A stretch of DNA of 64,000 nt from Lachnospiraceae bacterium (GTDB lineage: Bacteria > Bacillota > Clostridia > Lachnospirales > Lachnospiraceae). Position 1 is the first letter of the stretch; each line of letters starts with the position of its first letter. The notes under the pieces are model-generated. The model saw only the letters and a list, made by a program, of their open reading frames with translations. It was not told the origin of the DNA and did not search any database. Of the stretch, positions 5,785 to 25,282 are shown piece after piece. Made by a program: the position numbers and the translations under genes. The stretch spans positions 849 through 64,848 of the forward strand of contig JAFYHV010000162.1 of assembly GCA_017538995.1 (NCBI GenBank). The letters are read 5' to 3'.

Positions 5785-6957
5785 ATGGATGCTTTAATGA
5801 CGGAAAATGTAGCGGAGAAAATAATGGCAGCAATCAGAGATGTTCAAAAGAATATGACCAAACTGAATATCATGGTTATGGGAAAGACGGGTGCCGGCAA
5901 AAGTACCCTTATTAACAATGTGTTCAGCAGAAATCTCGCTCAGACAGGTATAGGAAAGCCTGTAACACAGTCTATTCGCAAATACGAGATAGAGGACTTC
6001 CCTCTGGCAATCTATGATACTCCCGGTCTTGAACTCGGCGGAGAAAATGCCATCGACGAGCTCCTAAAAGAATCAAAAGAAGTTCTTTCAAAGGGTGCAA
6101 TGCGCGGTATTTCCGAATCTATTCACTGTATCTGGTACTGTGTTTCCACACCTTCTCATCGTTTCGAAGAGGCTGAGGTTGAGTTTATTAAGAAATTTCT
6201 CGATGAAGCTAACGAATTCTGTGTACCCGTAATCATCGTGCTTACACAGTCTTATTCAAAGAAAGATGCCAAGGCTTTAATGTCTGAAATCGAAAAAGAG
6301 AACTTAAATGTGGTTCAGATTGTTCCCGTTCTTGCTCAGGATGTGGATATTGACGAAGAATACGTAATTAAGGCATACGGCCTTGATACTCTTATAGATA
6401 TTGTAAACAACGTAATTCCCGAGGCTTTGAGAAATACTCTTGCGGCTGTTCAGAAGGCAAGCCTTAAGATGAAATTAAGAAAAGCCAACGCAATCGTTGC
6501 CACAGCGGCAGCAGCTGCAGCGGCTACGGGCGCTATTCCTATTCCGTTTACGGATGCGGCAGTACTTGTTCCCGAGCAGATTGGTATGATTGCATCAATT
6601 ACCGCGGTATTCGGTATTCCTATCGAAAAAGCAACCGTTACGGCTATTCTTTCGGCTACAATCGGAACCGTCGGTACTACAGTAATGGGAAAAACCGTTG
6701 TTTCGAGCCTTCTTAAGATGATTCCCGGTGTCGGATCAATTGCAGGCGGTGTTATTTCAGCATCCGTTGCAGCAGCGCTTACCGCAGCGCTTGGCGAAGC
6801 ATACATTGCAATCATGATGATGGTTTCAAAGGGCGAAATGAGCGTATCCGAACTTGATACCGCTGAAGGAAAAGCCAAGATTTCACAGATCTTTATGTCC
6901 AAACTCGGACTTAAGAGAAATGCTAAAGGCAAGCCCGTTGAAGAGGAAGAGGAATAA
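5785..6957 (+). CDS. P-loop GTPase with a C-terminal Gly/Ala-rich membrane-associated domain (DUF697 / YcjF-like)
   Basis: G1 motif GKTGAGKS and G3 motif DTPGL. The C-terminal 150 aa are Ala/Gly/Ile-rich hydrophobic (AAAAAAATGAIPIPFTDAAVL...GVGSIAGGVISA). AGGAGG RBS. Confidence 0.7.
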   Translation: MDALMTENVAEKIMAAIRDVQKNMTKLNIMVMGKTGAGKSTLINNVFSRNLAQTGIGKPVTQSIRKYEIEDFPLAIYDTPGLELGGENAIDELLKESKEVLSKGAMRGISESIHCIWYCVSTPSHRFEEAEVEFIKKFLDEANEFCVPVIIVLTQSYSKKDAKALMSEIEKENLNVVQIVPVLAQDVDIDEEYVIKAYGLDTLIDIVNNVIPEALRNTLAAVQKASLKMKLRKANAIVATAAAAAAATGAIPIPFTDAAVLVPEQIGMIASITAVFGIPIEKATVTAILSATIGTVGTTVMGKTVVSSLLKMIPGVGSIAGGVISASVAAALTAALGEAYIAIMMMVSKGEMSVSELDTAEGKAKISQIFMSKLGLKRNAKGKPVEEEEE

Positions 6958-6964
6958 AAAAGTA

Positions 6965-6994
6965 TTGACTATTCGCACTCTGACGGATTAAGAT
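6965..6994 (+). promoter_or_regulatory. candidate sigma-A promoter of the aromatic operon leader
   Basis: TTGACT (6965-6970), an 18 nt spacer, then TAAGAT (6989-6994). Confidence 0.4.
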
Positions 6995-7015
6995 ATGTTT
7001 GTTTGGAGAAAAACT

Positions 7016-7138
7016 ATGAACGCTATAGGCATTAATTCCAAATTGAACAACGGTTTCTATTACTTTATTCAGGCCTACTTTTTTGTAAGCCTTTTTGCCT
7101 TTTACTTTTCAAAGAATAATTATGGGCGTACCGAATAA
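7016..7138 (+). CDS. candidate Phe/Tyr-rich leader peptide (40 aa)
   Basis: GGAGA RBS 6 nt upstream. The peptide is MNAIGINSKLNNGFYYFIQAYFFVSLFAFYFSKNNYGRTE, with 7 Phe and 5 Tyr and no Trp. It sits between a promoter and a terminator directly upstream of pheA. It is too short for the ORF track. Confidence 0.5.
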   Translation: MNAIGINSKLNNGFYYFIQAYFFVSLFAFYFSKNNYGRTE

Positions 7139-7169
7139 AGAATAGATGCTGACTGAATGTGATTATGTT

Positions 7170-7202
7170 TGCACTGTCCTTGTTCGGGGCAGTGCATTTT
7201 TT
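7170..7202 (+). terminator. intrinsic terminator (attenuator) in the pheA leader
   Basis: TGCACTGTCC / GGGGCAGTGCA stem followed by TTTTTT, ending 16 nt before the pheA ATG. Confidence 0.7.
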
Positions 7203-7218
7203 ATGAGGTGAAACAGAT

Positions 7219-8313
7219 ATGTCTCAGATGGATGAATTACGCGGCCAAATCGAGAGAATAGACGAGCAGATGATTGATTTGTTCGAGCAGAGAATGAGCA
7301 TCAGCTCACAGGTTGCGGCTTACAAAAAAGAACACGGAATTCCTGTACTCGATAAAGACAGGGAAAAGGTTCTTATTGCCAAGAACGCGGGAAAAGTCAA
7401 AAACAGAGAACTCGAGGTTTACTACAAAGACTTTTTCGAAGGTGTTTTAAATGTATCAAAGAGTTATCAGCATAAGCTGATGGAAGGCGTTAAGGTGGCT
7501 TACAGCGGAATCGAAGGCTCGTTTGCAAGCATTTCCGCGAGCAAAATCTTACCCGACGCCACCAGAGTGTCCTACGGCAGCTTCTCAGAGGCCTACAACG
7601 CCGTTGTAGCGGGCGAATGTGATTTTGCCGTACTTCCTATAGAAAACAGCTATGCGGGCGAAGTAGGGGCCGTTACGGACCTTATGTTTAAAGGTGATCT
7701 TTTTGTAAACGGAGTGTATGAGCTTGGCGTATCGCAGTGTCTTTTAGGAGTTAAGGACAGTTCTTTAGAGTCAATCAAGACGGTGGTCAGCCACTCACAG
7801 GCACTCGACCAGTGCAGCGAATATATAAAAAGACACGGATTAAAAAGTATATCCGCAGAAAACACTGCTGTTGCCGCAAAAGAAATCGCAGATAAAAATG
7901 ATATAACCGTAGGCGCTATAGCAAGCAAGGAAGCAGCCAAACTTTACGGTCTCACCATTCTGGATTATGATATTAACGAAAGCGCCCAGAATACCACGAG
8001 ATTTGCGGTATTTTCAAGAGAAAAGGCAGTCATTAAGAGCAATGACGTAGCGGGCGATTTTATACTGATGTTTACAGTTAAAAACGAAGCAGGCTCACTT
8101 GCAGATGCAATCGCAATTTTAGGTAAGCACGGATACAACATGAAAGTTATAAGAAGCAGACCTGTTAAGAATGAAAACTGGCAGTACTACTTCTACACAG
8201 AGGTTGAGGGAGACATCGAGACCGAAGAGGGTGAAAAGATGTTAAAAGACCTCGAAAAAGAATGCAACATGATTAAGGTCATCGGAACCTATGCTGCAGA
8301 TATGAAAATCTAG
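7219..8313 (+). CDS. pheA: bifunctional chorismate mutase / prephenate dehydratase (P-protein)
   Basis: N-terminal CM_2 helix pattern (LRGQIERIDEQMIDLFEQRM), PDT domain (VAYSGIEGSFAS ... TRF), and a C-terminal ACT domain. Confidence 0.9.
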   Translation: MSQMDELRGQIERIDEQMIDLFEQRMSISSQVAAYKKEHGIPVLDKDREKVLIAKNAGKVKNRELEVYYKDFFEGVLNVSKSYQHKLMEGVKVAYSGIEGSFASISASKILPDATRVSYGSFSEAYNAVVAGECDFAVLPIENSYAGEVGAVTDLMFKGDLFVNGVYELGVSQCLLGVKDSSLESIKTVVSHSQALDQCSEYIKRHGLKSISAENTAVAAKEIADKNDITVGAIASKEAAKLYGLTILDYDINESAQNTTRFAVFSREKAVIKSNDVAGDFILMFTVKNEAGSLADAIAILGKHGYNMKVIRSRPVKNENWQYYFYTEVEGDIETEEGEKMLKDLEKECNMIKVIGTYAADMKI

Positions 8314-8321
8314 GAGAAAAA

Positions 8322-9344
8322 ATGATCGTAAAAGTAAATCTTCCGATTAACGGATATGAAATTATAATCGAAAGAGGCGTGCTTTCAAATGCAGGAGCGG
8401 AACTAAATTTAAATCGTAAGGTTATGATTGTAACCGATGACGGCGTGCCTGAAAAGTACAGCGATATTCTTGGTGAGCAGTGCCTGAGCTCTTCGAAATT
8501 TGTGCTTAAGCACGGCGAGGAAAGTAAGAACCTTGATAACTTCGCTGCGATTGAAAAAGCACTTCTTGAAAACGGTTTTTCAAGAAAGGACTGCGTGGTG
8601 GCTTTAGGCGGTGGAGTAGTAGGAGATCTCGCAGGATTTGCTGCATCATGTTTTATGAGAGGCATAGATTTCTACAATATTCCGACCACTGTTTTATCAC
8701 AGGTTGATTCATCGGTTGGCGGAAAAACAGCTGTAGATTTTAACGGTGTAAAAAATATTGTCGGAACATTTTATCAGCCTAAAAAGGTGCTTATCGATCC
8801 CGATGTACTCGATACTCTTTCCGACAGACAGAAAGCCAACGGACTTGTGGAAGCAATCAAGATGGCTGCAACATTTGATGCTAATCTTTTTGAAGAATTT
8901 GAGAAGGCTGAAAAGTTTGAAGACCTTGATATCGAATACGTAATCGGCAAAGCAATTCAGACAAAAGCGAACGTGGTTGAAAAGGACGAAAAAGAAGCAG
9001 ATCTTCGTAAGGTCTTAAACTTCGGACATACATTGGGCCACGGCGTTGAAGCGGCACTTCAGGATACCGACAGAGCACTTCTTCACGGAGAATGCGTAGG
9101 CATGGGTATGACGGTAATGTGCGATGAAGACGTAAAGGAACGCATCGTAAAGATACTTAACATGCTTAAGATAGCGCCCGTGTATTCATTCAATTACGAC
9201 GAAGCGCTTGAAGCCGTAACACATGATAAAAAGTTAAACGGCAAAACAATCTCCGCAGTATATGTTTCAAAAATCGGAACATACGAAATGAGAGATATGA
9301 CACCTGCTGAACTTGGGGAGAGGTTGAAAAAACTTCTTGCATAA
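8322..9344 (+). CDS. aroB: 3-dehydroquinate synthase
   Basis: LGGGVVGDLAGFAAS and VDSSVGGKTAVD motifs; 340 aa. Confidence 0.9.
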   Translation: MIVKVNLPINGYEIIIERGVLSNAGAELNLNRKVMIVTDDGVPEKYSDILGEQCLSSSKFVLKHGEESKNLDNFAAIEKALLENGFSRKDCVVALGGGVVGDLAGFAASCFMRGIDFYNIPTTVLSQVDSSVGGKTAVDFNGVKNIVGTFYQPKKVLIDPDVLDTLSDRQKANGLVEAIKMAATFDANLFEEFEKAEKFEDLDIEYVIGKAIQTKANVVEKDEKEADLRKVLNFGHTLGHGVEAALQDTDRALLHGECVGMGMTVMCDEDVKERIVKILNMLKIAPVYSFNYDEALEAVTHDKKLNGKTISAVYVSKIGTYEMRDMTPAELGERLKKLLA

Positions 9345-9358
9345 AAGAGGGTAATTTT

Positions 9359-10453
9359 ATGAAGAACACATTCGGACAAAGTTTACAGACAACAATATTC
9401 GGTGAGAGCCACGGACCTTACATCGGAGTGGTTTTAGACGGTCTTGCACCGGGCATCGAAGTAAATGATGATTTTATAAAAGAAAAACTTGCTTTAAGAA
9501 GACCTGCGGGTGCAATATCAACCGCCAGAGTCGAGGCTGATGAATATACATTTGCAAGCGGTGTGTTTAACGGTAAAACTACCGGAACGCCTCTTTGCAT
9601 TTTAATACCGAATACCAATACAAGAAGTGCGGATTACGACAAGGCAGGAAGAGTTGCAAGACCCGGTCATGCAGACTATACCGCAATGTGCAAATATCAC
9701 GGCTTTGAAGACTACAGAGGCGGCGGACATTTCAGCGGAAGAATTACCGCAGCAATAGTTGCAGGCGGCGCTATCGCAATGAGTGCACTCGAGAAGAAAG
9801 GTATTTTAATCGGAACACATATTTACAAGCTGTCCGATTTAACGGACAGAGAGTTTTCGGATATTAAGAATGATATCTCTGCTTTGAATAAAAAATCATT
9901 TGCAGTTCTTGATGAAGAAGTTGCAGAAAAAATGATTAAAGCAATCGAAGATGCAGCAAAGGATGCAGACAGTGTAGGCGGTGTTCTTGAAACCGCAATT
10001 ACAGGACTTCCCGCAGGTGTAGGCGAGCCCTGGTTTGATTCTGTTGAAAGCATTCTTTCACATGTTCTTTTCTCCGTACCCGGTATCAAGGGTGTACAGT
10101 TCGGCGCAGGATTTGACAAGGTATGCGAGAGAGGCTCAAACTTCAACGATGCGTTTAGAAACGAAGACGGAAAAGTTGTTACGGCCACAAATAATAACGG
10201 CGGAATTAACGGCGGTATCACAAACGGTATGCCGGTTATCATAAAGTGTGCGGTTAAACCCACACCTTCAATTTATAAAGAGCAGCAGAGCGTTAATCTT
10301 AACACACTTGAAAATGCTGACATTGCTATTGAAGGAAGACACGATCCAGCAATCATTCACAGAGCAAGAGTCGTGGTTGATTCTGTATGCGCGCTGGCTG
10401 TATACGATATGCTTGCTGCAAGATTCGGAACTGATTATTTTACACAGGAATAA
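9359..10453 (+). CDS. aroC: chorismate synthase
   Basis: N-terminal FGESHGPYIGVVLDG and the GGGHFSGR motif; 364 aa. Confidence 0.92.
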   Translation: MKNTFGQSLQTTIFGESHGPYIGVVLDGLAPGIEVNDDFIKEKLALRRPAGAISTARVEADEYTFASGVFNGKTTGTPLCILIPNTNTRSADYDKAGRVARPGHADYTAMCKYHGFEDYRGGGHFSGRITAAIVAGGAIAMSALEKKGILIGTHIYKLSDLTDREFSDIKNDISALNKKSFAVLDEEVAEKMIKAIEDAAKDADSVGGVLETAITGLPAGVGEPWFDSVESILSHVLFSVPGIKGVQFGAGFDKVCERGSNFNDAFRNEDGKVVTATNNNGGINGGITNGMPVIIKCAVKPTPSIYKEQQSVNLNTLENADIAIEGRHDPAIIHRARVVVDSVCALAVYDMLAARFGTDYFTQE

Positions 10454-10456
10454 AAC

Positions 10457-11692
10457 ATGGAATACGGACTTATAGGCGAACGCCTCGGACACAGCTTTTC
10501 GAAAGTGATTCATGAGGAGTTCGGATTTTACGGATACGAATTAAAAGAAATACCGCGTGACGGTCTCGATGCTTTTATGGAAGCAAAGGAATTCAGGGGA
10601 ATAAACGTTACGATTCCTTATAAGGAAGACGTCATCAAACACCTTGATTTCATCGATGAAAAAGCACGTGCAATAGGTGCGGTAAACACGGTTGTTAATA
10701 ACAACGGAAAGCTTAGCGGTTACAATACCGATTACTACGGACTTAAAACCCTGCTCGAAGAAAACGGTTTTAATTTACAGGGTAAGAAGGTACTTATACT
10801 CGGTACCGGCGGTACCAGCAAAACCGCGTATGCTGTATGCGAAGACATGGGCGCTGCCTTCTTAAGCAAGGTAAGCCGCAGTGCGAAAGACGGGGCTATC
10901 ACATACGAAGAAGCATACGAGAAACATTCCGATGCGGCATATATCGTTAATACAACGCCTAGCGGAATGTATCCAAACCTTGATGCAAAGCCCATTGATT
11001 TAAAGCATTTTACGAGCCTTGAAGGTGTTGCGGACGTAATCTACAACCCCGGCAGAACGAGATTAATACTCGAAGCCAAAGAGATGGGTGTTAAATACTG
11101 CAGCGGTTTAAAAATGCTTGTTTTACAGGCAGTTGCGGCATGCGAGTTTTTTACGGGCAATAAAGTACCTGCTAAAAAGGTTGAAGAGATTTATAAAAAT
11201 CTTTACGACGAAAACAACAACATCGTTTTAACCGGAATGCCGGGAAGCGGTAAGAGCACGATAGGAAAACTCCTTGCGGAAAAGCTTGGAAAAACCTTTA
11301 TAGATACAGATGCTCTGATAGTTGAAAGAGAAAAAAGAGAGATATCCGATATCTTTGCAACCGACGGCGAGAAGTATTTCAGAAATGTTGAGAAAGAAAT
11401 TGTTACCGAAGTTTCAACTCTTAAAAACAGCATCATTTCAACAGGCGGCGGAGTTATTTTAAACGCAGACAATGTAAAAAATCTGATGGCCAACGGAACG
11501 GTTTTCTTCCTTGACAGAAAGCCTGAAGATCTCGTTCCAACGGACGACAGACCGCTTGCAAACGAAAAAGCAAAGATAATGAAACTTTACGAGGAGAGGC
11601 TTCCGATTTACAATTCGACATGCGATTACAAAATCAACGCGGAAGTCGGAATCGACGAAACTGCAGAAGAAATTTTAAGGAGATTACAGTGA
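10457..11692 (+). CDS. aroE/aroK: shikimate dehydrogenase fused to shikimate kinase
   Basis: The N-terminal ~250 aa are AroE-like (GLIGERLGHSFS, NVTIPYKE, GTGGTSK). The C-terminal ~160 aa carry the shikimate kinase Walker A (GMPGSGKSTIG) and GGG lid. It is a single ORF. Confidence 0.88.
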   Translation: MEYGLIGERLGHSFSKVIHEEFGFYGYELKEIPRDGLDAFMEAKEFRGINVTIPYKEDVIKHLDFIDEKARAIGAVNTVVNNNGKLSGYNTDYYGLKTLLEENGFNLQGKKVLILGTGGTSKTAYAVCEDMGAAFLSKVSRSAKDGAITYEEAYEKHSDAAYIVNTTPSGMYPNLDAKPIDLKHFTSLEGVADVIYNPGRTRLILEAKEMGVKYCSGLKMLVLQAVAACEFFTGNKVPAKKVEEIYKNLYDENNNIVLTGMPGSGKSTIGKLLAEKLGKTFIDTDALIVEREKREISDIFATDGEKYFRNVEKEIVTEVSTLKNSIISTGGGVILNADNVKNLMANGTVFFLDRKPEDLVPTDDRPLANEKAKIMKLYEERLPIYNSTCDYKINAEVGIDETAEEILRRLQ

Positions 11693-12111
11693 AAACAATA
11701 CGTGTTATAAACGGACCAAATTTAAATATGCTCGGAATCAGAGAGCCTGATATTTACGGTAAAACAGATTATAAATCACTTTGTGAAATGATTGAGAATT
11801 ATGCGGATGTAATCGGTGTAAATGTTCAGATAATGCAGAGCAATCACGAGGGCGATCTGGTTGACTGGATTCAGGAAAGCTATAAGGCAATTGACGGAAT
11901 CATCATCAATCCCGGCGCATACACACATACAAGTGTGGCTATTCTTGATGCAGCAAAAGCAGTCGGAATTCCTATGGTGGAAGTACATATTTCTGATGTG
12001 GATTCAAGAGAAGAATTCAGACAGGTAAGCTACATCAGAGCAGCATGCATTAAAACAATTTCAGGTCACGGTATAAACGGCTACCTCGAAGCCATGGATT
12101 TATTAAAATAG
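11689..12111 (+). CDS. aroQ: type II 3-dehydroquinate dehydratase
   Basis: The GTG at 11689 overlaps the aroE/aroK stop (GTGA). The product VKTIRVINGPNLNMLGIREPDIYG...HISD is typical AroQ. The track start at 11620 is an out-of-context extension. Confidence 0.88.
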   Translation: MKTIRVINGPNLNMLGIREPDIYGKTDYKSLCEMIENYADVIGVNVQIMQSNHEGDLVDWIQESYKAIDGIIINPGAYTHTSVAILDAAKAVGIPMVEVHISDVDSREEFRQVSYIRAACIKTISGHGINGYLEAMDLLK

Positions 12112-12117
12112 CCAATC

Positions 12118-12164
12118 GGGGACGGTTCCGTTTTGGCAAAAAAGGCCAAAACGGAACCGTCCCC
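12118..12164. repeat. perfect 20-bp inverted repeat (stem-loop) with no U-tract
   Basis: GGGGACGGTTCCGTTTTGGC, a 7 nt loop, then GCCAAAACGGAACCGTCCCC. It lies between aroQ and aroA-tyrA. Confidence 0.8.
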
Positions 12165-12184
12165 AAATGGTCACTTTTAGAAAT

Positions 12185-14266
12185 ATGAATGTTACGATAG
12201 AAAAATCAACTGCATACGGTGAAATTTCAGCTCCGCCTTCAAAGAGCATGGCGCACAGATACATTATCTGTGCAGCACTTGCTAACGGTGAGAGCGTCAT
12301 TTCCAATGTGGATTTTTCGGAAGATATAAAAGCTACAATCGACTGTATAAAAACTCTTGGCGCAGATGTAAGGGTTGAAGGTTCTACTGTTTATGTAGAC
12401 GGAAGCAGGAGCATTTTAAGTGCTCCGAGCGAAACACTTACCTTTAACTGCCGTGAGTCCGGAAGTACCATGCGTTTCTTCATGGGAATCGCAATGACAC
12501 TTCCCGTGGTAAGTGAGTTTTACGGAAGCGAGACATTAAGGAACAGGCCTTTCGGAATATACGAAAACATTTTAAGGAGTGACGAATCTTTATCCTTTGA
12601 AAGACAGTCCGATAAGATTGTTATCAAAGGCGGAATCAGAGAAAACGATTTCGAAGTTGCAGGCAATATAAGCAGTCAGTTTATCACAGGGCTTCTTTTA
12701 GCATTGTCCATAAAAGGCGAGGGCGGAAGCATAAAACTCATCCCTCCCGTAGAAAGCAGATCATACATCAACATGACAATCCAGGCAATGAATGAGTTTG
12801 GAATAAATGTCGGCTGGAAGGATGAAAACACACTTTACGTAGAGAGCGGATGCAAATATATCTGTAAGAAAATCGAAGTCGAGGGCGACTATTCAAACGC
12901 TGCATTTCTTGATGCGTTCAATTTAATTGGCGGTAAAGTTAAGGTAAACGGACTAAACGAAAAAAGCCTTCAGGGCGACAGGATTTACAAAGAATATTTT
13001 GAGAAACTTTTATGCGAAAAAGCCACACTTGATATTGCAGACTGCCCTGATTTGGGACCCGTGCTTTTCGCAATGGCAGCAGCAAATAAAGGCGGAGTTT
13101 TCACATCGACTGCACGCCTTAAAATAAAAGAGAGCGACCGCGGAAGCGTAATGTGCGAGGAACTTGCAAAGTTTGGTATAAGCACGCACATGGAAGAGAA
13201 CTCAATCGAAATTGGCTGCGGATTAAACTCTCCGACAGTAGCAGTCGACGGTCACAACGATCACAGAATCGTAATGTCGATGGCGCTTCTTTTATCAGCA
13301 ACCGGTGGTACAATAAACGGTGCACAGGCAGTAAGAAAAAGCTATCCGGGATTTTTTGAAGACATTGAAAAGCTCGGAATTAAGATAAACAAAGAGGATA
13401 AAAACATGGAATGGATTAACAAACAAAACGTCCTTATCGTCGGACTCGGACTTATGGGCGGAAGTTACGCGAAGGCACTTAAAAGAATAGGCTGCCGCGT
13501 AACCGCAATTGACAAAAGCGAAGAGACAATAAAATTTGCAATCGAAAACGATATTATCGATGACGGAACTTTTAAGGAAGATATCTCCGAATTCGTCAAA
13601 GAAGCGGACTGCATTATCCTGGCTCTTTATCCGAACGCCGCAATTGAGTGGGTTAAAAACAACGTAAAAGACATAAAAGAAGGAATCCGCATCACAGACG
13701 TTACAGGTGTTAAGAGCTGCATCGTATATGAAATTCAGGATATCCTCGGTGACAGGGCTGAATTTATTGCAGCACATCCTATGGCAGGTAAGGAAACAAG
13801 CGGTGTTGAAAGTGCAGACGATCGTATCTTCAGAGATGCCAACTACATCGTTGTACCTACAGATAAAAACAGCGAAGAAGCAATTTTATGGTGCGAGAAT
13901 TTAGGACAGATTTTAGGCTTTAATAAAGTAAGTATTTTAAGTCCCGAAGAGCATGACGAAATGATTGCATATGTATCACAGCTTACACACTGCATCGCCG
14001 TTTCGCTTATGACATGTAAGGATAACGAGCACCTTAAAGATTACACGGGCGATTCTTTTAGGGACTTAACGAGAATCGCAAGAATAAATGAGAACATGTG
14101 GAGCGAACTTTTCCACGTGAACAAGGAATCACTGCTTCGTGAGATGGATTTGTTTATCGAAGAAATCACAGGTTTAAGAAACCTCATCGCAGAAGACAAT
14201 ACAGAAGCAATTAAAGAGAAAATGAGACTCTCTACCAAGAGACGTTCAAAATTTAATACAAAATAA
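12185..14266 (+). CDS. aroA/tyrA: EPSP synthase fused to prephenate dehydrogenase
   Basis: The N-terminal ~420 aa are AroA-like (SAPPSKSMAHR, LGADV, DHRIVMS). The C-terminal ~280 aa are TyrA-like (LIVGLGLMGGSYAKAL, AAHPMAGKE). It is a single ORF. An alternative start at 12167 abuts the hairpin. Confidence 0.85.
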   Translation: MNVTIEKSTAYGEISAPPSKSMAHRYIICAALANGESVISNVDFSEDIKATIDCIKTLGADVRVEGSTVYVDGSRSILSAPSETLTFNCRESGSTMRFFMGIAMTLPVVSEFYGSETLRNRPFGIYENILRSDESLSFERQSDKIVIKGGIRENDFEVAGNISSQFITGLLLALSIKGEGGSIKLIPPVESRSYINMTIQAMNEFGINVGWKDENTLYVESGCKYICKKIEVEGDYSNAAFLDAFNLIGGKVKVNGLNEKSLQGDRIYKEYFEKLLCEKATLDIADCPDLGPVLFAMAAANKGGVFTSTARLKIKESDRGSVMCEELAKFGISTHMEENSIEIGCGLNSPTVAVDGHNDHRIVMSMALLLSATGGTINGAQAVRKSYPGFFEDIEKLGIKINKEDKNMEWINKQNVLIVGLGLMGGSYAKALKRIGCRVTAIDKSEETIKFAIENDIIDDGTFKEDISEFVKEADCIILALYPNAAIEWVKNNVKDIKEGIRITDVTGVKSCIVYEIQDILGDRAEFIAAHPMAGKETSGVESADDRIFRDANYIVVPTDKNSEEAILWCENLGQILGFNKVSILSPEEHDEMIAYVSQLTHCIAVSLMTCKDNEHLKDYTGDSFRDLTRIARINENMWSELFHVNKESLLREMDLFIEEITGLRNLIAEDNTEAIKEKMRLSTKRRSKFNTK

Positions 14267-14307
14267 AAATGAGAGAATGAATAAAGTTAAGGAAGGCAAG
14301 TAAAACC

Positions 14308-15336
14308 ATGAAAATGAATTTCATCAAAAAACTGGCATTACCCGTAGAGGTTAAGGAAATGTGTCCGTTAACCGGCAAGATGGGGGATCTTGTTGATACG
14401 AAAAAGGCACAGTTGGAATCTGTATTTGAAGGAAGAAGCGACAAGCTTATACTTATCATCGGACCCTGCTCGGCAGACAGAGAGGACAGTGTAATCGATT
14501 ACATTTCAAGACTCTGTCCTATCCAGGAAAAGGTAAAAGATAAAATCATCATTGTTCCGAGAATTTATACAAACAAGCCCCGTACAACAGGCGAGGGTTA
14601 TAAGGGCATGCTTCATCAGCCTGACCCTAATGAAAAGTCCGATCTTTTCAAGGGAATCATTGCGACCAGACATCTTCACATGCGTGCGATTGAAGAGACC
14701 GGTTTTGCGTGCGCCGATGAAATGCTTTATCCCGAAAACTATCAGTACCTTGATGACGTGCTTGCATATGTTGCAGTCGGAGCAAGATCCGTAGAAGACC
14801 AGCAGCATCGTCTTGTTGCCAGTGGTATTGCGGCACCCGTAGGTATGAAAAATCCTACATCAGGTGATATAAGCGTTATGATGAACGGTATCCTTGCAGC
14901 ACAGCATTCACACTCATTCATCTACAGAGGCTGGGAAGTTCACTCGGAAGGCAATCCTTACGCACATGCTATTTTACGAGGTTATACCAACAAGCACGGC
15001 GAGTCACAGCCTAACTACCACTTCGAAGATCTTATAAGACTCTGCGACGCATATGACGAGAGAGACCTCATTAATCCCGCAGTTATCATCGACACCAACC
15101 ATTCGAACTCGGGCAAGAACCCGCTTGAGCAGCCCAGAATCATAAAAGACGTGCTTTACTCCACCAGACATGACGAGCGCGTTAAGAAGATTCTCAAAGG
15201 CTTCATGGTTGAAAGCTACATCGAGGACGGCTGCCAGAAGGTAGACGGTGGCGTATACGGCAAGTCAATTACCGATCCCTGTCTCGGCTGGGAAAAGACC
15301 GAAAGACTTATTTACGAGATTGCAGATTTATTATAA
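14308..15336 (+). CDS. aroF: 3-deoxy-7-phosphoheptulonate (DAHP) synthase
   Basis: 342 aa. LIIGPCSA, KPRT and the IIDTNHSNSGK pattern match class I DAHP synthases. Confidence 0.8.
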   Translation: MKMNFIKKLALPVEVKEMCPLTGKMGDLVDTKKAQLESVFEGRSDKLILIIGPCSADREDSVIDYISRLCPIQEKVKDKIIIVPRIYTNKPRTTGEGYKGMLHQPDPNEKSDLFKGIIATRHLHMRAIEETGFACADEMLYPENYQYLDDVLAYVAVGARSVEDQQHRLVASGIAAPVGMKNPTSGDISVMMNGILAAQHSHSFIYRGWEVHSEGNPYAHAILRGYTNKHGESQPNYHFEDLIRLCDAYDERDLINPAVIIDTNHSNSGKNPLEQPRIIKDVLYSTRHDERVKKILKGFMVESYIEDGCQKVDGGVYGKSITDPCLGWEKTERLIYEIADLL

Positions 15337-15384: not shown

Positions 15385-15658
15385 AACAAACCTATGAAAA
15401 AGAGTGAGTAGACTTTTCCTCTTTCAGATACAGAGAACCGCCGGTGCTGAGAGCGCGGTATTGAAATGTAAAGTTGAATGGGCTTTTGAGGGCAAAAGGA
15501 AACGAAGCAATTCGGAGTATTGGCGCCGGGGAAGGGACCCCGTAAACAAAACCGGCATATGACAGTATGCAATGAGAGGATGCGTCTCGCATCAAGCAGG
15601 GTGGCACCGCAGGAAAGATACCTGTCCCGGCATAGTATGAATCTATGCCGGGTTTTTT
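15385..15658 (+). promoter_or_regulatory. T-box riboswitch leader, Trp specifier (UGG)
   Basis: AGAGA box (CAGAGAAC) and distal loop GGTGCTGAGAG. Specifier context GAA-TGG-G at 15476-15482. T-box sequence AGGGTGGCACCGCAGG at about 15598-15613. Terminator CCCGGCATAG/CTATGCCGGG plus TTTTTT at 15626-15658. Confidence 0.85.
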
Positions 15659-15748
15659 AATACTTAAAAGAACTGCTGCGAAGAAATCCTTATCGTTGGA
15701 ATATTGTTGAAACGTAAACAATTTTTTACAACCTGAAAGGAGACAGAC

Positions 15749-17119
15749 ATGTCAAAAGAAATCCCTTACAAAATTTATCTTGAAGAAAACGAGATGCCTA
15801 AGGCTTGGTACAACCTTCGCGCAGACATGATTAATAAGCCCGCACCGTTACTTAATCCCGGAACATTACAGCCTATGAAGGCAGAGGAACTCGCAGGCGT
15901 TTTCTGTGAAGAACTCGTAAAACAGGAACTTGATAACGATACAAGATTCATCGAGATTCCAGAAGAAATCAGAAACTTCTACAAGATGTACAGACCTTCA
16001 CCTTTGGTAAGAGCTTACTGCCTTGAAGAGAAGCTTCAGACACCTGCTAAGATTTACTACAAATTCGAGGGTAACAATACATCAGGAAGCCACAAACTTA
16101 ACTCAGCTATTGCTCAGGCTTACTACGCTAAGAAACAGGGCCTTAAGGGCGTTACCACAGAGACCGGTGCTGGTCAGTGGGGTACAGCTCTTTCAATGGC
16201 TTGTTCATATTTCGATCTTGACTGCAAAGTATTCATGGTTAAGGTTTCATACGAACAGAAGCCTTTCAGACGTGAAGTTATGAGAACATACGGCGCTTCT
16301 GTTACACCTTCTCCTTCAATGGAAACAGAAGTAGGTAAGAGAATCAACGCAGCTCATCCCGGAACCACAGGTTCACTCGGCTGTGCAATTTCAGAAGCAG
16401 TTGAAGTTGCAACAAGCACGCCCGGTTACAGATATGTTCTTGGTTCAGTTCTTAACCAGGTACTTCTTCATCAGTCGGTTATCGGTCTTGAAACAAAGGC
16501 TGCACTTGATAAATACGGCATCAAAGCAGACATCGTTATCGGCTGCGCAGGCGGCGGATCAAACCTCGGCGGTCTTATTGCTCCTTTTATGGGCGAAAAG
16601 ATTCAGAAGGGCACAGACTACAGAATCATCGCGGTTGAGCCTGCTTCATGTCCTTCCTTCACAAGAGGCGTATACGCATATGACTTCTGCGATACCGGTA
16701 TGGTTTGTCCTCTTGCTAAGATGTACACACTCGGCAGTGATTTCATTCCCGCACCCAACCATGCAGGCGGACTTCGTTATCACGGCATGAGCTCCATTCT
16801 TTCACAGCTCTACGCTGACGGACTTATGGAAGCAACTACAGCTAAGCAGACAGAAGTATTTGAAGCTGCTGAAATGTTCGCAAGAGTTGAAGGTATTCTT
16901 CCTGCTCCCGAAAGTTCACATGCTATCAAAGTTGCTATCGATGAAGCTCTTAAGTGCAAGGAAACAGGCGAAGAAAAGACTATCGTATTCGGTCTTACCG
17001 GTACAGGTTACTTCGATCTTGTTGCATACGAGAAATTCCATGACGGCAAGATGGATGATTATATTCCTACAGACGAAGAACTTGCAAAGTTCAGAGCAAA
17101 CCTTCCTAAAGTAGATTAA
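15749..17119 (+). CDS. trpB: TrpB2-type tryptophan synthase beta chain (PLP enzyme)
   Basis: 456 aa, the long TrpB2 form. The N-terminus IPYKIYLEENEMPKAWYN matches TrpB2, with the PLP-lysine region GSHKLNSA and GGGSN. Confidence 0.85.
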   Translation: MSKEIPYKIYLEENEMPKAWYNLRADMINKPAPLLNPGTLQPMKAEELAGVFCEELVKQELDNDTRFIEIPEEIRNFYKMYRPSPLVRAYCLEEKLQTPAKIYYKFEGNNTSGSHKLNSAIAQAYYAKKQGLKGVTTETGAGQWGTALSMACSYFDLDCKVFMVKVSYEQKPFRREVMRTYGASVTPSPSMETEVGKRINAAHPGTTGSLGCAISEAVEVATSTPGYRYVLGSVLNQVLLHQSVIGLETKAALDKYGIKADIVIGCAGGGSNLGGLIAPFMGEKIQKGTDYRIIAVEPASCPSFTRGVYAYDFCDTGMVCPLAKMYTLGSDFIPAPNHAGGLRYHGMSSILSQLYADGLMEATTAKQTEVFEAAEMFARVEGILPAPESSHAIKVAIDEALKCKETGEEKTIVFGLTGTGYFDLVAYEKFHDGKMDDYIPTDEELAKFRANLPKVD

Positions 17120-23832: not shown

Positions 23833-23919
23833 ATGGCAAAGGATTTTATAATCAATTTTGTAAAAAATATACTGTTGATTCGAATGTGCTCACGATGTCG
23901 ATGTTGCAGCGTGAATTAA
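23833..23919 (+). CDS. candidate Cys-rich upstream ORF (28 aa) in the metY-cysK leader
   Basis: GAGAGGA lies 4 nt upstream. The peptide is MAKDFIINFVKNILLIRMCSRCRCCSVN, with 4 Cys and 1 Met in the last 11 codons. Confidence 0.35.
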   Translation: MAKDFIINFVKNILLIRMCSRCRCCSVN

Positions 23920-23998
23920 GATGAACAAAGATTCATCAAAAAAGAGAAAATGAATGATTAAAATAATTAACAGTATATAACGAAAGGAAATAAATAAA

Positions 23999-25282
23999 AT
24001 GAGCGATTACAGATTTGAAACATTACAGATACATGTTGGACAGGAGAGCCCCGACATCTCCACAGATGCGAGAGCGGTTCCCATCTACGCAACCACATCC
24101 TACGTATTTAAGGATTCCAAGACAGCAGCAGGAAGATTCGGACTTACAGAGAGCGGTAACATTTACACCAGACTCATGAACCCCACTTCCGATGTTTTTG
24201 AAAAAAGAATTGCAGCACTTGAAGGCGGTATCGGAGCACTTGCTACAGCTTCAGGTTCATCGGCAATCACATATGCGATTCAGAATATCGCAACCACAGG
24301 AGATCACATCGTAGCTTCCAAGAACCTTTACGGCGGAACTTACAACCTTCTCGCACACACACTCAAAGATCAGGGACTTACAACCACATTCGTAGATCCT
24401 TCCGATCCCGAGAATTTTGAAAAAGCAATTAAGGACAATACAAAGCTTCTTTATGCAGAGACTCTTGGCAATCCCAACTCGGATATTGCAGATCTCGAAG
24501 CAATTTCGGCAATTGCACACAAGCACGGAATTCCGCTTATTGTTGACTCTACATTTGCTACTCCTTATCTTCTTCGTCCGATTGAACACGGCGCAGATAT
24601 AGTGGTACATTCCGCTACCAAGTTCATCGGCGGACACGGAACGGTAATGGGCGGTGTCATCGTTGACGGCGGTAAGTTTGACTGGGCTCAGAATGATAAA
24701 TTCCCCGGCCTTTCCAAACCCAATCCTTCATATCACGGAATCGTATTTACGGATGCAGTCGGTGCGGCAGCTTATATCATAAAATTAAGAACAACCATCA
24801 TGAGAGATCAAGGAGCTGCATTATCACCTTTCAACTCATTCCTTCTTATCCAGGGTCTTGAAACACTCTCACTCAGAGTGGAAAGACATGTTGAGAATGC
24901 TTTGAAGGTAATCGATTATTTAAGCAAACATCCTCAGGTAGAGAGAGTAAACCATCCTTCAGTTGAAGGCGGAAGACAGAAAGAACTTTATGATCAGTAC
25001 TTCCCTAACGGAGCAGGTTCAATCTTTACATTTGATATAAAGGGCGATGCAAACACAGCAAGAAAGTTCACTGAAAGCCTTAAGCTTTTCTCACTTCTTG
25101 CAAACGTTGCGGATGTTAAATCACTCGTTATTCATCCCGCATCAACCACACACTCACAGCTTAGCGAAGAAGAACTTCTCGATGCAGGTATCAGACCTAA
25201 TACCGTAAGACTTTCAATCGGTACAGAGCACATTGATGATATCATCGAAGATCTCGAGCAGGCATTTAAAGCAGTTTTATAA
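23999..25282 (+). CDS. metY: O-acetylhomoserine sulfhydrylase (aminocarboxypropyltransferase)
   Basis: 427 aa. The opening [11 protein letters not shown] and the PLP-lysine region [11 protein letters not shown]. Confidence 0.9.

Follow-up and report, generated by a model that had tools for sequence, protein, structure and literature searches.

The leader that precedes pheA in the analysed window, a stretch of 64,000 nucleotides from a Lachnospiraceae genome, is very probably a ribosome-mediated transcription attenuator of the pheA-aroB-aroC-aroEK-aroQ-aroA/tyrA-aroF operon, as judged from its sequence and predicted folding. All the elements that ribosome-mediated attenuation requires at the level of sequence are present in this leader. 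The candidate attenuator would read the supply of Phe-tRNA and probably also that of Tyr-tRNA. This reading, already put forward in the original prediction, draws support from the anatomy of the leader, from an antiterminator pairing, from the conservation of the leader ORF, from the recurrence of the same layout and from the substitution of the leader by Phe T-boxes at related operons. Ribosome stalling, coupling of transcription and translation, pausing at an inner hairpin and the sensing of Tyr in addition to Phe are what we infer from these features.

Anatomy of the leader and its operon

Transcription of the leader is predicted to start at about position 7001, some 7 nt past the -10 box of a sigma-70-type promoter on the forward strand (6965-6994), which consists of a -35 box TTGACT (6965-6970), an 18-nt spacer and a -10 box TAAGAT (6989-6994). 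In 11 relatives TTGAC is invariant and variation of the -10 box is confined to TAnnnT. The promoter is followed on the same strand by the leader ORF (7016-7138), which comprises 40 codons and a UAA stop (7136-7138) and encodes MNAIGINSKLNNGFYYFIQAYFFVSLFAFYFSKNNYGRTE; its Shine-Dalgarno sequence GGAG (7005-7008) is placed 7 nt ahead of the ATG at 7016. An in-frame ATG at 6995, which would give a 47-residue form, was dropped as a candidate start: it abuts the -10 box, and hence lies upstream of the predicted transcription start, and it is missing in relatives L007-L011.

The leader peptide contains 7 Phe, 5 Tyr and no Trp. Within codons 14-31 (7055-7108, forward strand) 11 of the 18 codons specify Phe or Tyr, and the translation agrees on this point with what had been noted initially. 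These codons are presumed to be the stall sites of the ribosome under scarcity of Phe-tRNA or Tyr-tRNA. Downstream of the ORF, and on the same strand, lies an intrinsic terminator (7170-7202) with an 11-bp stem (7170-7180:7186-7196, 6 GC), a 5-nt loop UGUUC and a run of six U (7197-7202). It ends 16 nt upstream of the pheA ATG (7219), and the pheA Shine-Dalgarno sequence, GAGG, occupies positions 7205-7208. No separate promoter-like site was found between 7138 and 7219. The coordinates first proposed for the promoter, the ribosome binding site, the ORF and the terminator, including its distance to pheA, all match the sequence.

Such a density of aromatic codons is rare in the host genome (2.29 Mb), where only 9 of 34,787 six-frame ORFs of 15-80 codons have at least 11 Phe/Tyr in 18 codons. 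Of the remaining eight, seven are located within long ORFs, in a different frame or on the opposite strand. The last one, on contig C45, is intergenic, and downstream on its strand no aromatic gene was seen, only a hydrophobic 315-residue ORF. This genome-wide scan for Phe/Tyr-rich small ORFs gave no further case upstream of aromatic genes, and a search of the same genome by nhmmer with a leader profile recovered no second copy of the leader. Gene callers have called the leader ORF in several public assemblies, with no name given.

Rumen and gut metatranscriptome assemblies contain contigs from close relatives that cover the leader. One of them spans 7001-7206 and another begins at 7007, which agrees, if weakly, with a start some 7 nt past the -10 box, and other contigs run in from the upstream gene or on into pheA. 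In none of the runs does coverage fall at the terminator. Given that these are low-depth assemblies that may include DNA, the contigs speak only for presence, and neither for termination nor for regulation.

Downstream of the leader, Pfam searches identified pheA (7219-8313; chorismate mutase, prephenate dehydratase and ACT domains), aroB (8322-9344), aroC (9359-10453), an aroE-aroK fusion (10457-11692), aroQ (11620-12111), an aroA-tyrA fusion (12167-14266) and, together with a genome search for PF00793, the DAHP synthase gene aroF (14308-15336), all on the forward strand. The finding of pheA and of the aroA-tyrA fusion is in line with the initial proposal that the Phe/Tyr bias of the leader fits the end products of the operon. 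From pheA to the DAHP synthase gene the genes share direction and tight spacing, with no strong forward-strand terminator inside, and the seven genes (7219-15336) appear to form one operon. With these genes downstream, DAHP synthase included, the leader would front the whole common pathway as well as the Phe and Tyr branches.

The DAHP synthase gene at 14308-15336 was absent from the operon list of the original prediction. According to the PF00793 genome search, it is the sole copy of DAHP synthase I in the genome. Beyond it, the region 15385-15632 holds a T-box with the context GAA-UGG-G, which precedes a PALP enzyme of the TrpB type. The UGG T-box previously assigned to the neighbouring Trp gene is real, with a score of 84.5 bits (below the Rfam gathering score of 93) and an E value of 2e-17.

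Mutually exclusive folds of the leader RNA

The predicted fold of the leader RNA beats 200 of 200 shuffles (z = -4.2), and its four-region layout is the design of the trp, his and phe attenuators. Region 1 (7051-7070, codons 12-19), the 5' strand of the anti-antiterminator, pairs with 7133-7151 over 18 bp. Region 2 (7131-7153), the switch strand CCGAAUAAAGAAUAGAUGCUGAC, includes the stop codon (7136-7138) and pairs with either region 1 or region 3. Region 3 (7167-7187) comprises the 5' arm and the loop of the terminator and forms the antiterminator when paired with region 2, and pairing of regions 3 and 4 gives the terminator itself; all four regions are on the forward strand. In the antiterminator 2:3, an imperfect helix of 19 bp capped by a 3-bp apical stem, the 5' arm and the loop of the terminator are taken up completely. 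The energies of duplex 1:2 (-19.8 kcal/mol), hairpin 2:3 (-16.9 kcal/mol) and hairpin 3:4 (-18.1 kcal/mol) are similar, and the folds are mutually exclusive. When the partner strand was shuffled with dinucleotide content retained, the energy of 1:2 was matched by 1 of 2000 shuffles (p ~0.0005) and that of 2:3 by 29 of 2000 (p ~0.015).

No antiterminator pairing had been visible by eye in the original prediction. Constrained folding, in which the ribosome footprint was masked and the RNA was cut at 7187, before the 3' arm of the terminator is complete, provides one at 7131-7153:7167-7187, and the RNA folding that had been suggested as a check reveals the alternative structures 1:2, 2:3 and 3:4. 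With no ribosome on the RNA, 1:2 pairs and the terminator forms. With the footprint masked of a ribosome whose A site is on codon 14, 16 or 22, region 2 switches to 7167-7187, and with the ribosome masked on the UAA stop codon the terminator returns. If the ribosome is placed instead at codons 27-31, which lie between regions 1 and 2, helix 1:2 can re-form around it in the unconstrained fold, and codons 14-23 are therefore the cluster that clearly frees region 2.

Taken as an attenuator, the leader would operate as follows. Transcription would begin near 7001 and a ribosome would translate the 40-codon leader. With both Phe-tRNA and Tyr-tRNA plentiful, the ribosome would reach the UAA at 7136-7138 and cover region 2 (7131-7153), regions 3 and 4 would pair, and the terminator at 7170-7202 would form and stop transcription 16 nt before pheA. 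If either charged tRNA were scarce, the ribosome would stall in the Phe/Tyr block, chiefly at codons 14-23, which overlap region 1. Region 2 would then be free to pair with region 3 (7167-7187), consuming the 5' arm of the terminator and allowing the polymerase to enter the operon. Where translation fails altogether, regions 1 and 2 would pair and the terminator would form.

Two additional forward-strand hairpins are predicted at the 5' end and inside the ORF. The 5'-terminal hairpin (7001-7043) joins GUUUGGAG (7001-7008) to UUCCAAAU (7036-7043) through 8 bp and sequesters the leader Shine-Dalgarno sequence GGAG (7005-7008). Across 11 relatives seven of its eight pairs are kept in at least 10, and the outermost pair (column 12:55) in 9. 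It may serve as a stabiliser of the 5' end and/or as a brake on ribosome loading. The internal hairpin, AGGCCUAC-UUUUUU-GUAAGCCU (7071-7092, codons 19-26), pairs 7071-7078 with 7085-7092, which settles the position of the hairpin that had been seen within the Phe codons. It stacks on helix 1:2, and a U-rich run comes after it. Compared across 15 leaders from three subtypes, its pairing reaches 93.3%, with 11 cells altered on both sides, and its covariation score in this set, whose kinship inflates the counts, is 0.424 as compared with 0.258 after shuffling (0 of 500 shuffles as high). A function as a pause or coupling element is suggested.

Conservation in close relatives

When the leader was compared by BLAST with 60 related genomes, 10 of them, all of the same genus, proved to contain it at 75-97% identity. 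The Shine-Dalgarno sequence, the ATG, the frame and the stop are kept in all 10 of these genomes, and the ORF, its frame and all helices are retained in 12 related leaders. Codons 2-13 vary mostly at the third codon position (9/4/18 by codon position), with 16 synonymous codon types versus 13 residue changes, and relative L010 carries an in-frame deletion of 3 nt in the ORF. Variation of this sort and an in-frame indel are coding signatures, as read from the alignment. Across 11 relatives the residues encoded by codons 14-31 change at three places only, codons 16, 22 and 23, and each time between Phe and Tyr. The check on ORF conservation that the original prediction had called for yields an ORF kept in relatives, coding-type variation at its 5' end and nothing other than Phe/Tyr swaps in its core.

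Toward the 3' end of the ORF the pattern changes. Codons 24-31 are invariant, synonymous sites included, and the attenuator model does not fully account for the invariance of synonymous sites at 7093-7108. Codons 32-38 vary freely (12/15/14 by codon position), yet they stay open and constant in length, as expected for a spacer whose only requirement is translation. No change occurs in the final two codons or the stop, which belong to the strand common to helices 1:2 and 2:3.

These patterns also bear on whether the ORF encodes a stable hydrophobic micro-protein, such as a membrane peptide, with 7170-7202 as its own terminator and pheA expressed by leaky read-through or from another promoter. 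Residues 13-31 do constitute a 19-residue hydrophobic stretch, S8, K9, N11 and N12 are conserved, Leu occupies position 10 in 10 of the 11 (L011 has Met), and, as mentioned, gene callers have picked up the ORF in several public assemblies. However, the stretch contains 11 Phe/Tyr and just a single Leu, Ile and Val, a composition unlike that of a membrane helix; residues 32-38 show no constraint (12/15/14, as above), and RNA pairing accounts for the conserved codons at the C-terminal end. Moreover, the region between 7138 and 7219 has no promoter-like site from which pheA could be expressed, the ORF occurs only directly 5' of Phe/Tyr genes, in one copy per genome, and between subtypes the peptide sequence changes while position, aromatic richness and terminator persist. 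A micro-protein is thus extremely improbable, and a regulatory leader peptide is the preferred reading of the ORF.

The pairings on which the attenuator would depend were evaluated in 12 sequences, with the partner strand shifted by 1-3 columns as a control. Helix 1:2 is paired in 91.7% of cells, against 39-55% with the partner slid, and helix 2:3 in 91.9%, against 33-46%. The terminator 3:4 is 94.5% paired, with two pairs altered on both sides, and region 2 is near-invariant in 12 relatives. Covariation of 1:2, 2:3 and 3:4 in the 12 close relatives is not significant (43-79 of 500 shuffles as high) because compensatory changes are too few. The case for these three predicted helices is one of conserved pairing potential, not of compensatory change.

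Diverged leaders, Phe T-boxes and known attenuators

A covariance model of the leader detected diverged homologues in another seven genomes of the genus, where they directly precede PDT-only genes, and a homologue in another Lachnospiraceae genus as well. Over 400 Lachnospiraceae genera the model gave one clear further leader and three other matches to the terminator only; either the family evolves too fast for the model or it is patchy. The PDT-only peptides (MTSKRNAQLN..AFAFTFFQ..FFAGLYWRWQF..) contain 7 Phe, 1-3 Tyr and 2 Trp. Their leaders precede a PDT-DAHP synthase pair (PDT-aroF), and tyrA was not seen downstream within the ~1.5 kb fetched. A third leader type, MKKLITKANEYFYFYFDFSRFYFGGYYFGANES, occurs upstream of tyrA-pheA-aroF, and diverged aromatic-rich leaders with terminators also front pheA-tyrA-aroF operons. 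Pfam searches confirmed the operon contents pheA-tyrA-aroF and pheA-aroB-aroC.

In order to assess the distribution of such leaders, the 80 closest PheA loci of a species-level genome collection were surveyed, 75 of which had upstream sequence. Aromatic-rich leader ORFs are present at 45 of these 75 Clostridia pheA loci. Leader-peptide attenuators of his genes have also been predicted in the Bacillus cereus group, Peptostreptococcaceae and Erysipelotrichales (PMC2965389, PMC9413887). Contrary to the earlier assumption of an uncommon device, it is not rare in these Clostridia. Most of the leaders (35 of the 45) belong to an Oscillospirales-type family with the consensus MNLAL..SKYFFSFSVAFYFGYAYFAMKKLLVRA, in which the antiterminator strand GUUACUUGUGAG mimics the 3' arm of the terminator and the stop lies at a distance from the aromatic core that differs between members by up to ~10 codons.

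An automated fold analysis was applied to 18 leaders of all types; it did not work where the ORF extends beyond the switch strand. Terminators of -12 to -21 kcal/mol were obtained in 17 of the 18, and in most of them the strength of 2:3 is comparable to that of the terminator, with its 5' strand overlapping the stop codon. Relative to the stop, this strand covers -6 to +18 nt in the type found in the window, -3 to +16 in the PDT type and about -16 to +4 in the Oscillospirales type.

Five leader-less loci (L059, L077, L084, L079 and L108) have a T-box immediately 5' of pheA, and in three of the five, those with alignments shown, the specifier is GAA-UUC-C, a Phe codon. At four more leader-less pheA loci a T-box lies ~2 kb upstream. 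That related pheA operons use either a Phe T-box or an aromatic leader ORF argues that the leader reads the same signal.

T-boxes filling the same slot in relatives would also suit an RNA-only switch governed by the binding of a protein, tRNA or small molecule to the leader, with the ORF being incidental to a U-rich structured RNA. The almost invariant nucleotides of the core (7055-7108), synonymous sites included, and the covarying internal hairpin point in the same direction. Yet neither at the gathering score nor with E values as high as 1 did any Rfam family match 6900-7220, T-box (RF00230) and Phe_leader included, in a scan that does detect the Trp T-box at 15385-15632; Phe T-boxes were found in relatives. 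The conserved Shine-Dalgarno sequence, ATG and frame, together with third-position variation and an in-frame indel, argue against an incidental ORF, as does the persistence across subtypes of aromatic codon richness, in spite of differing nucleotide sequence, and of a stop codon within region 2. Overall, control without the ORF is very unlikely. Control by a protein of the TRAP or PyrR type was rejected, there being no such repeat pattern in the leader sequence.

A further possibility is that the nascent peptide itself acts as the sensor, as in TnaC or SecM, such that free Phe or Tyr would hold the ribosome in place, for instance on the stop codon over region 2, and high levels would favour termination. 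The position of the stop codon within region 2 would be suited to this, the core is conserved beyond its aromatic residues (V24, S25, L26, A28), and an FAFYF patch is set 10-14 residues ahead of the stop, with no change of spacing within the subtype of the window. Helix 1:2 and the inner hairpin nevertheless explain most of the conservation of the peptide core, the peptide bears no apparent similarity to known arrest peptides, and control by tRNA charging requires no extra mechanism. The variable core-to-stop distance of the Oscillospirales type (differences of up to ~10 codons) is also at odds with an arrest that is specific to a position in the tunnel. A sensor of this kind is considered highly improbable.

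It is similarly very doubtful that the nascent aromatic peptide slows or arrests its own ribosome in the exit tunnel, making the stall dependent on the peptide in addition to tRNA charging, or even on free Phe/Tyr at the stop. If true, nascent-chain arrest would account for the synonymous invariance of codons 24-31 and for the constant distance of 7 codons between FAFYF and the stop. Much more likely than such arrest, and on balance probable, is a large uncatalogued family of Phe/Tyr attenuators across the Clostridia, in alternation with Phe T-boxes, equipped with a covarying pause hairpin of its own and with a codon make-up that tracks operon content.

Three leader peptides matched no Pfam or NCBIfam family, even with E values as high as 10, and literature searches found no description of a Phe/Tyr leader in Clostridia. 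A known counterpart, pheL, is essentially limited to gamma-proteobacteria according to the survey in PMC3082878, and the few possible exceptions named there are from Bacteroides and Desulfobacterium. Like the leader in the window, the E. coli pheL-pheA system (Rfam Phe_leader) has an ORF rich in codons for the end product directly 5' of pheA and alternating 1:2, 2:3 and 3:4 hairpins, and it follows the logic proposed here, in which a ribosome at the stop codon blocks the antiterminator and the supply of charged tRNA is read out. In contrast, the two have no sequence or covariance-model similarity, and pheL has ~15 codons, with Phe in runs, whereas the ORF in the window has 40, with scattered aromatic codons and Phe mixed with Tyr. 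Also distinct from pheL are the seven-gene operon with tyrA and the whole shikimate pathway, the covarying hairpin within the ORF and the Firmicute host.

Among Gram-positive bacteria, a summary (PMC11802643) of the work of Neshat et al. 2014 describes a C. glutamicum leader peptide, aroR (Phe-Tyr-Phe), upstream of aroF, whose expression is affected by limitation of Phe and not of Tyr. As far as that account goes, aroR resembles the window in being a Gram-positive leader with Phe/Tyr codons that attenuates an operon containing DAHP synthase. By description, it differs in its actinobacterial host, in the genes regulated and in having three regulatory codons only. Since aroR is described there as answering to Phe and not to Tyr, Tyr sensing by the leader in the window is not to be assumed.

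The predicted His attenuators of Firmicutes likewise represent classical leader-peptide attenuation in place of T-boxes at amino-acid operons, but they rely on runs of 3-5 His codons, have unrelated sequences and control different operons. With the Phe T-boxes of related pheA genes the leader shares its position, a terminator/antiterminator output and, as proposed here, tRNA-Phe charging as the signal; a T-box, however, binds uncharged tRNA directly, with no need for translation, and the leader has no T-box features. The leu/phe leaders of Lactococcus are short Firmicute ORFs with runs of Leu or Phe codons upstream of amino-acid genes. This motif reportedly entered Rfam through the 2010 work of Weinberg and colleagues and is said to have a narrow range (Lactococcus); the scan against all Rfam families gave no match to it in the leader region of the window.

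The class of mechanism is textbook, and what is particular to this leader are its mixed Phe/Tyr codons, its long peptide, the covarying hairpin within the ORF and the seven-gene operon that follows. As a candidate attenuator it would be a well-resolved addition to the few leader-peptide attenuators of Firmicutes, where amino-acid operons are usually assigned to T-boxes, and it would place the whole shikimate pathway and both the Phe and Tyr branches under a single switch. The survey documents an exchange between T-boxes and leader peptides at related pheA operons of uncultured gut and rumen Clostridia. For genome annotation, small ORFs of this type should be labelled as regulatory leaders and not as hypothetical proteins, and the family could join the catalogues of RNAs and leaders.

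The proximal leader: an upstream in-frame ATG, invariant codons and a possible loop contact

Codons 27-31 of the Phe/Tyr-rich leader (7093-7108, UUU GCC UUU UAC UUU) show no change at any position across 11 congeneric leaders, 12 if the cross-collection locus L035 is included, and are used by no predicted conserved helix. This invariance possibly reflects a pause tract, or selection acting on particular codons. Further upstream, codons 10-12 (7044-7050, UUGAACA) are predicted to pair with the loop of the leader terminator (7180-7186, UGUUCGG) in the ribosome-free fold of an RNA cut at 7187; this modelled pairing may be an additional contact or simply due to chance.

An in-frame ATG at 6995 (additional stretch 6995-7015) yields a 47-aa form of the leader (MFVWRKT...), which is picked by some gene callers in public assemblies. 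Since this ATG adjoins the -10 box (6989-6994) and is missing from more distant relatives, it is probably not used as the leader start. The GTPase gene upstream of the leader lacks a terminator of its own, and ATG 6995 could be relevant on read-through transcripts arriving from that gene.

Additional segment upstream of pheA in relatives

In the related loci L005 (1764-1810), L006, L010 (1666-1760) and L011, an additional conserved segment (AUGAUAAAGGAAUCAGAAGUCGAGAC...), ranging from 40 to about 330 nt, separates the leader terminator from pheA. The segment is absent from the window and present in RNA contigs, as inserts of 42 and 178 letters at 7206/7218. It could correspond to a second control element or to a small mobile insert.

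Other putatively regulated genes in the window

Directly 3' of the aromatic operon lie a T-box and a TrpB-type PALP gene (15385-17119). The T-box scores 84.5 bits, below the Rfam gathering score of 93, and its specifier position reads GAA-UGG-G. The downstream gene encodes a lone PALP enzyme of the TrpB type (456 aa), and no further trp genes follow it.

The leader of the gene at 23999-25282 contains a 28-codon ORF (23833-23919) that ends ..RMCSRCRCCSVN and is not followed by an intrinsic terminator. Close to the downstream Shine-Dalgarno site there is a long-range pairing between about 23867-23880 and 23966-23979. The ORF may constitute a second leader-peptide device of this genome, for Cys.

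Diverged leaders of PDT-DAHP synthase operons

At loci L127-L133 and L144 of the same genus, operons encoding prephenate dehydratase (PDT) and DAHP synthase are preceded by a diverged leader with 7 Phe codons, only 1-3 Tyr codons and a conserved Trp-Arg-Trp. Leader codon make-up appears to track the products of the operon, and Trp codons ahead of DAHP synthase would make sense as an arrangement.
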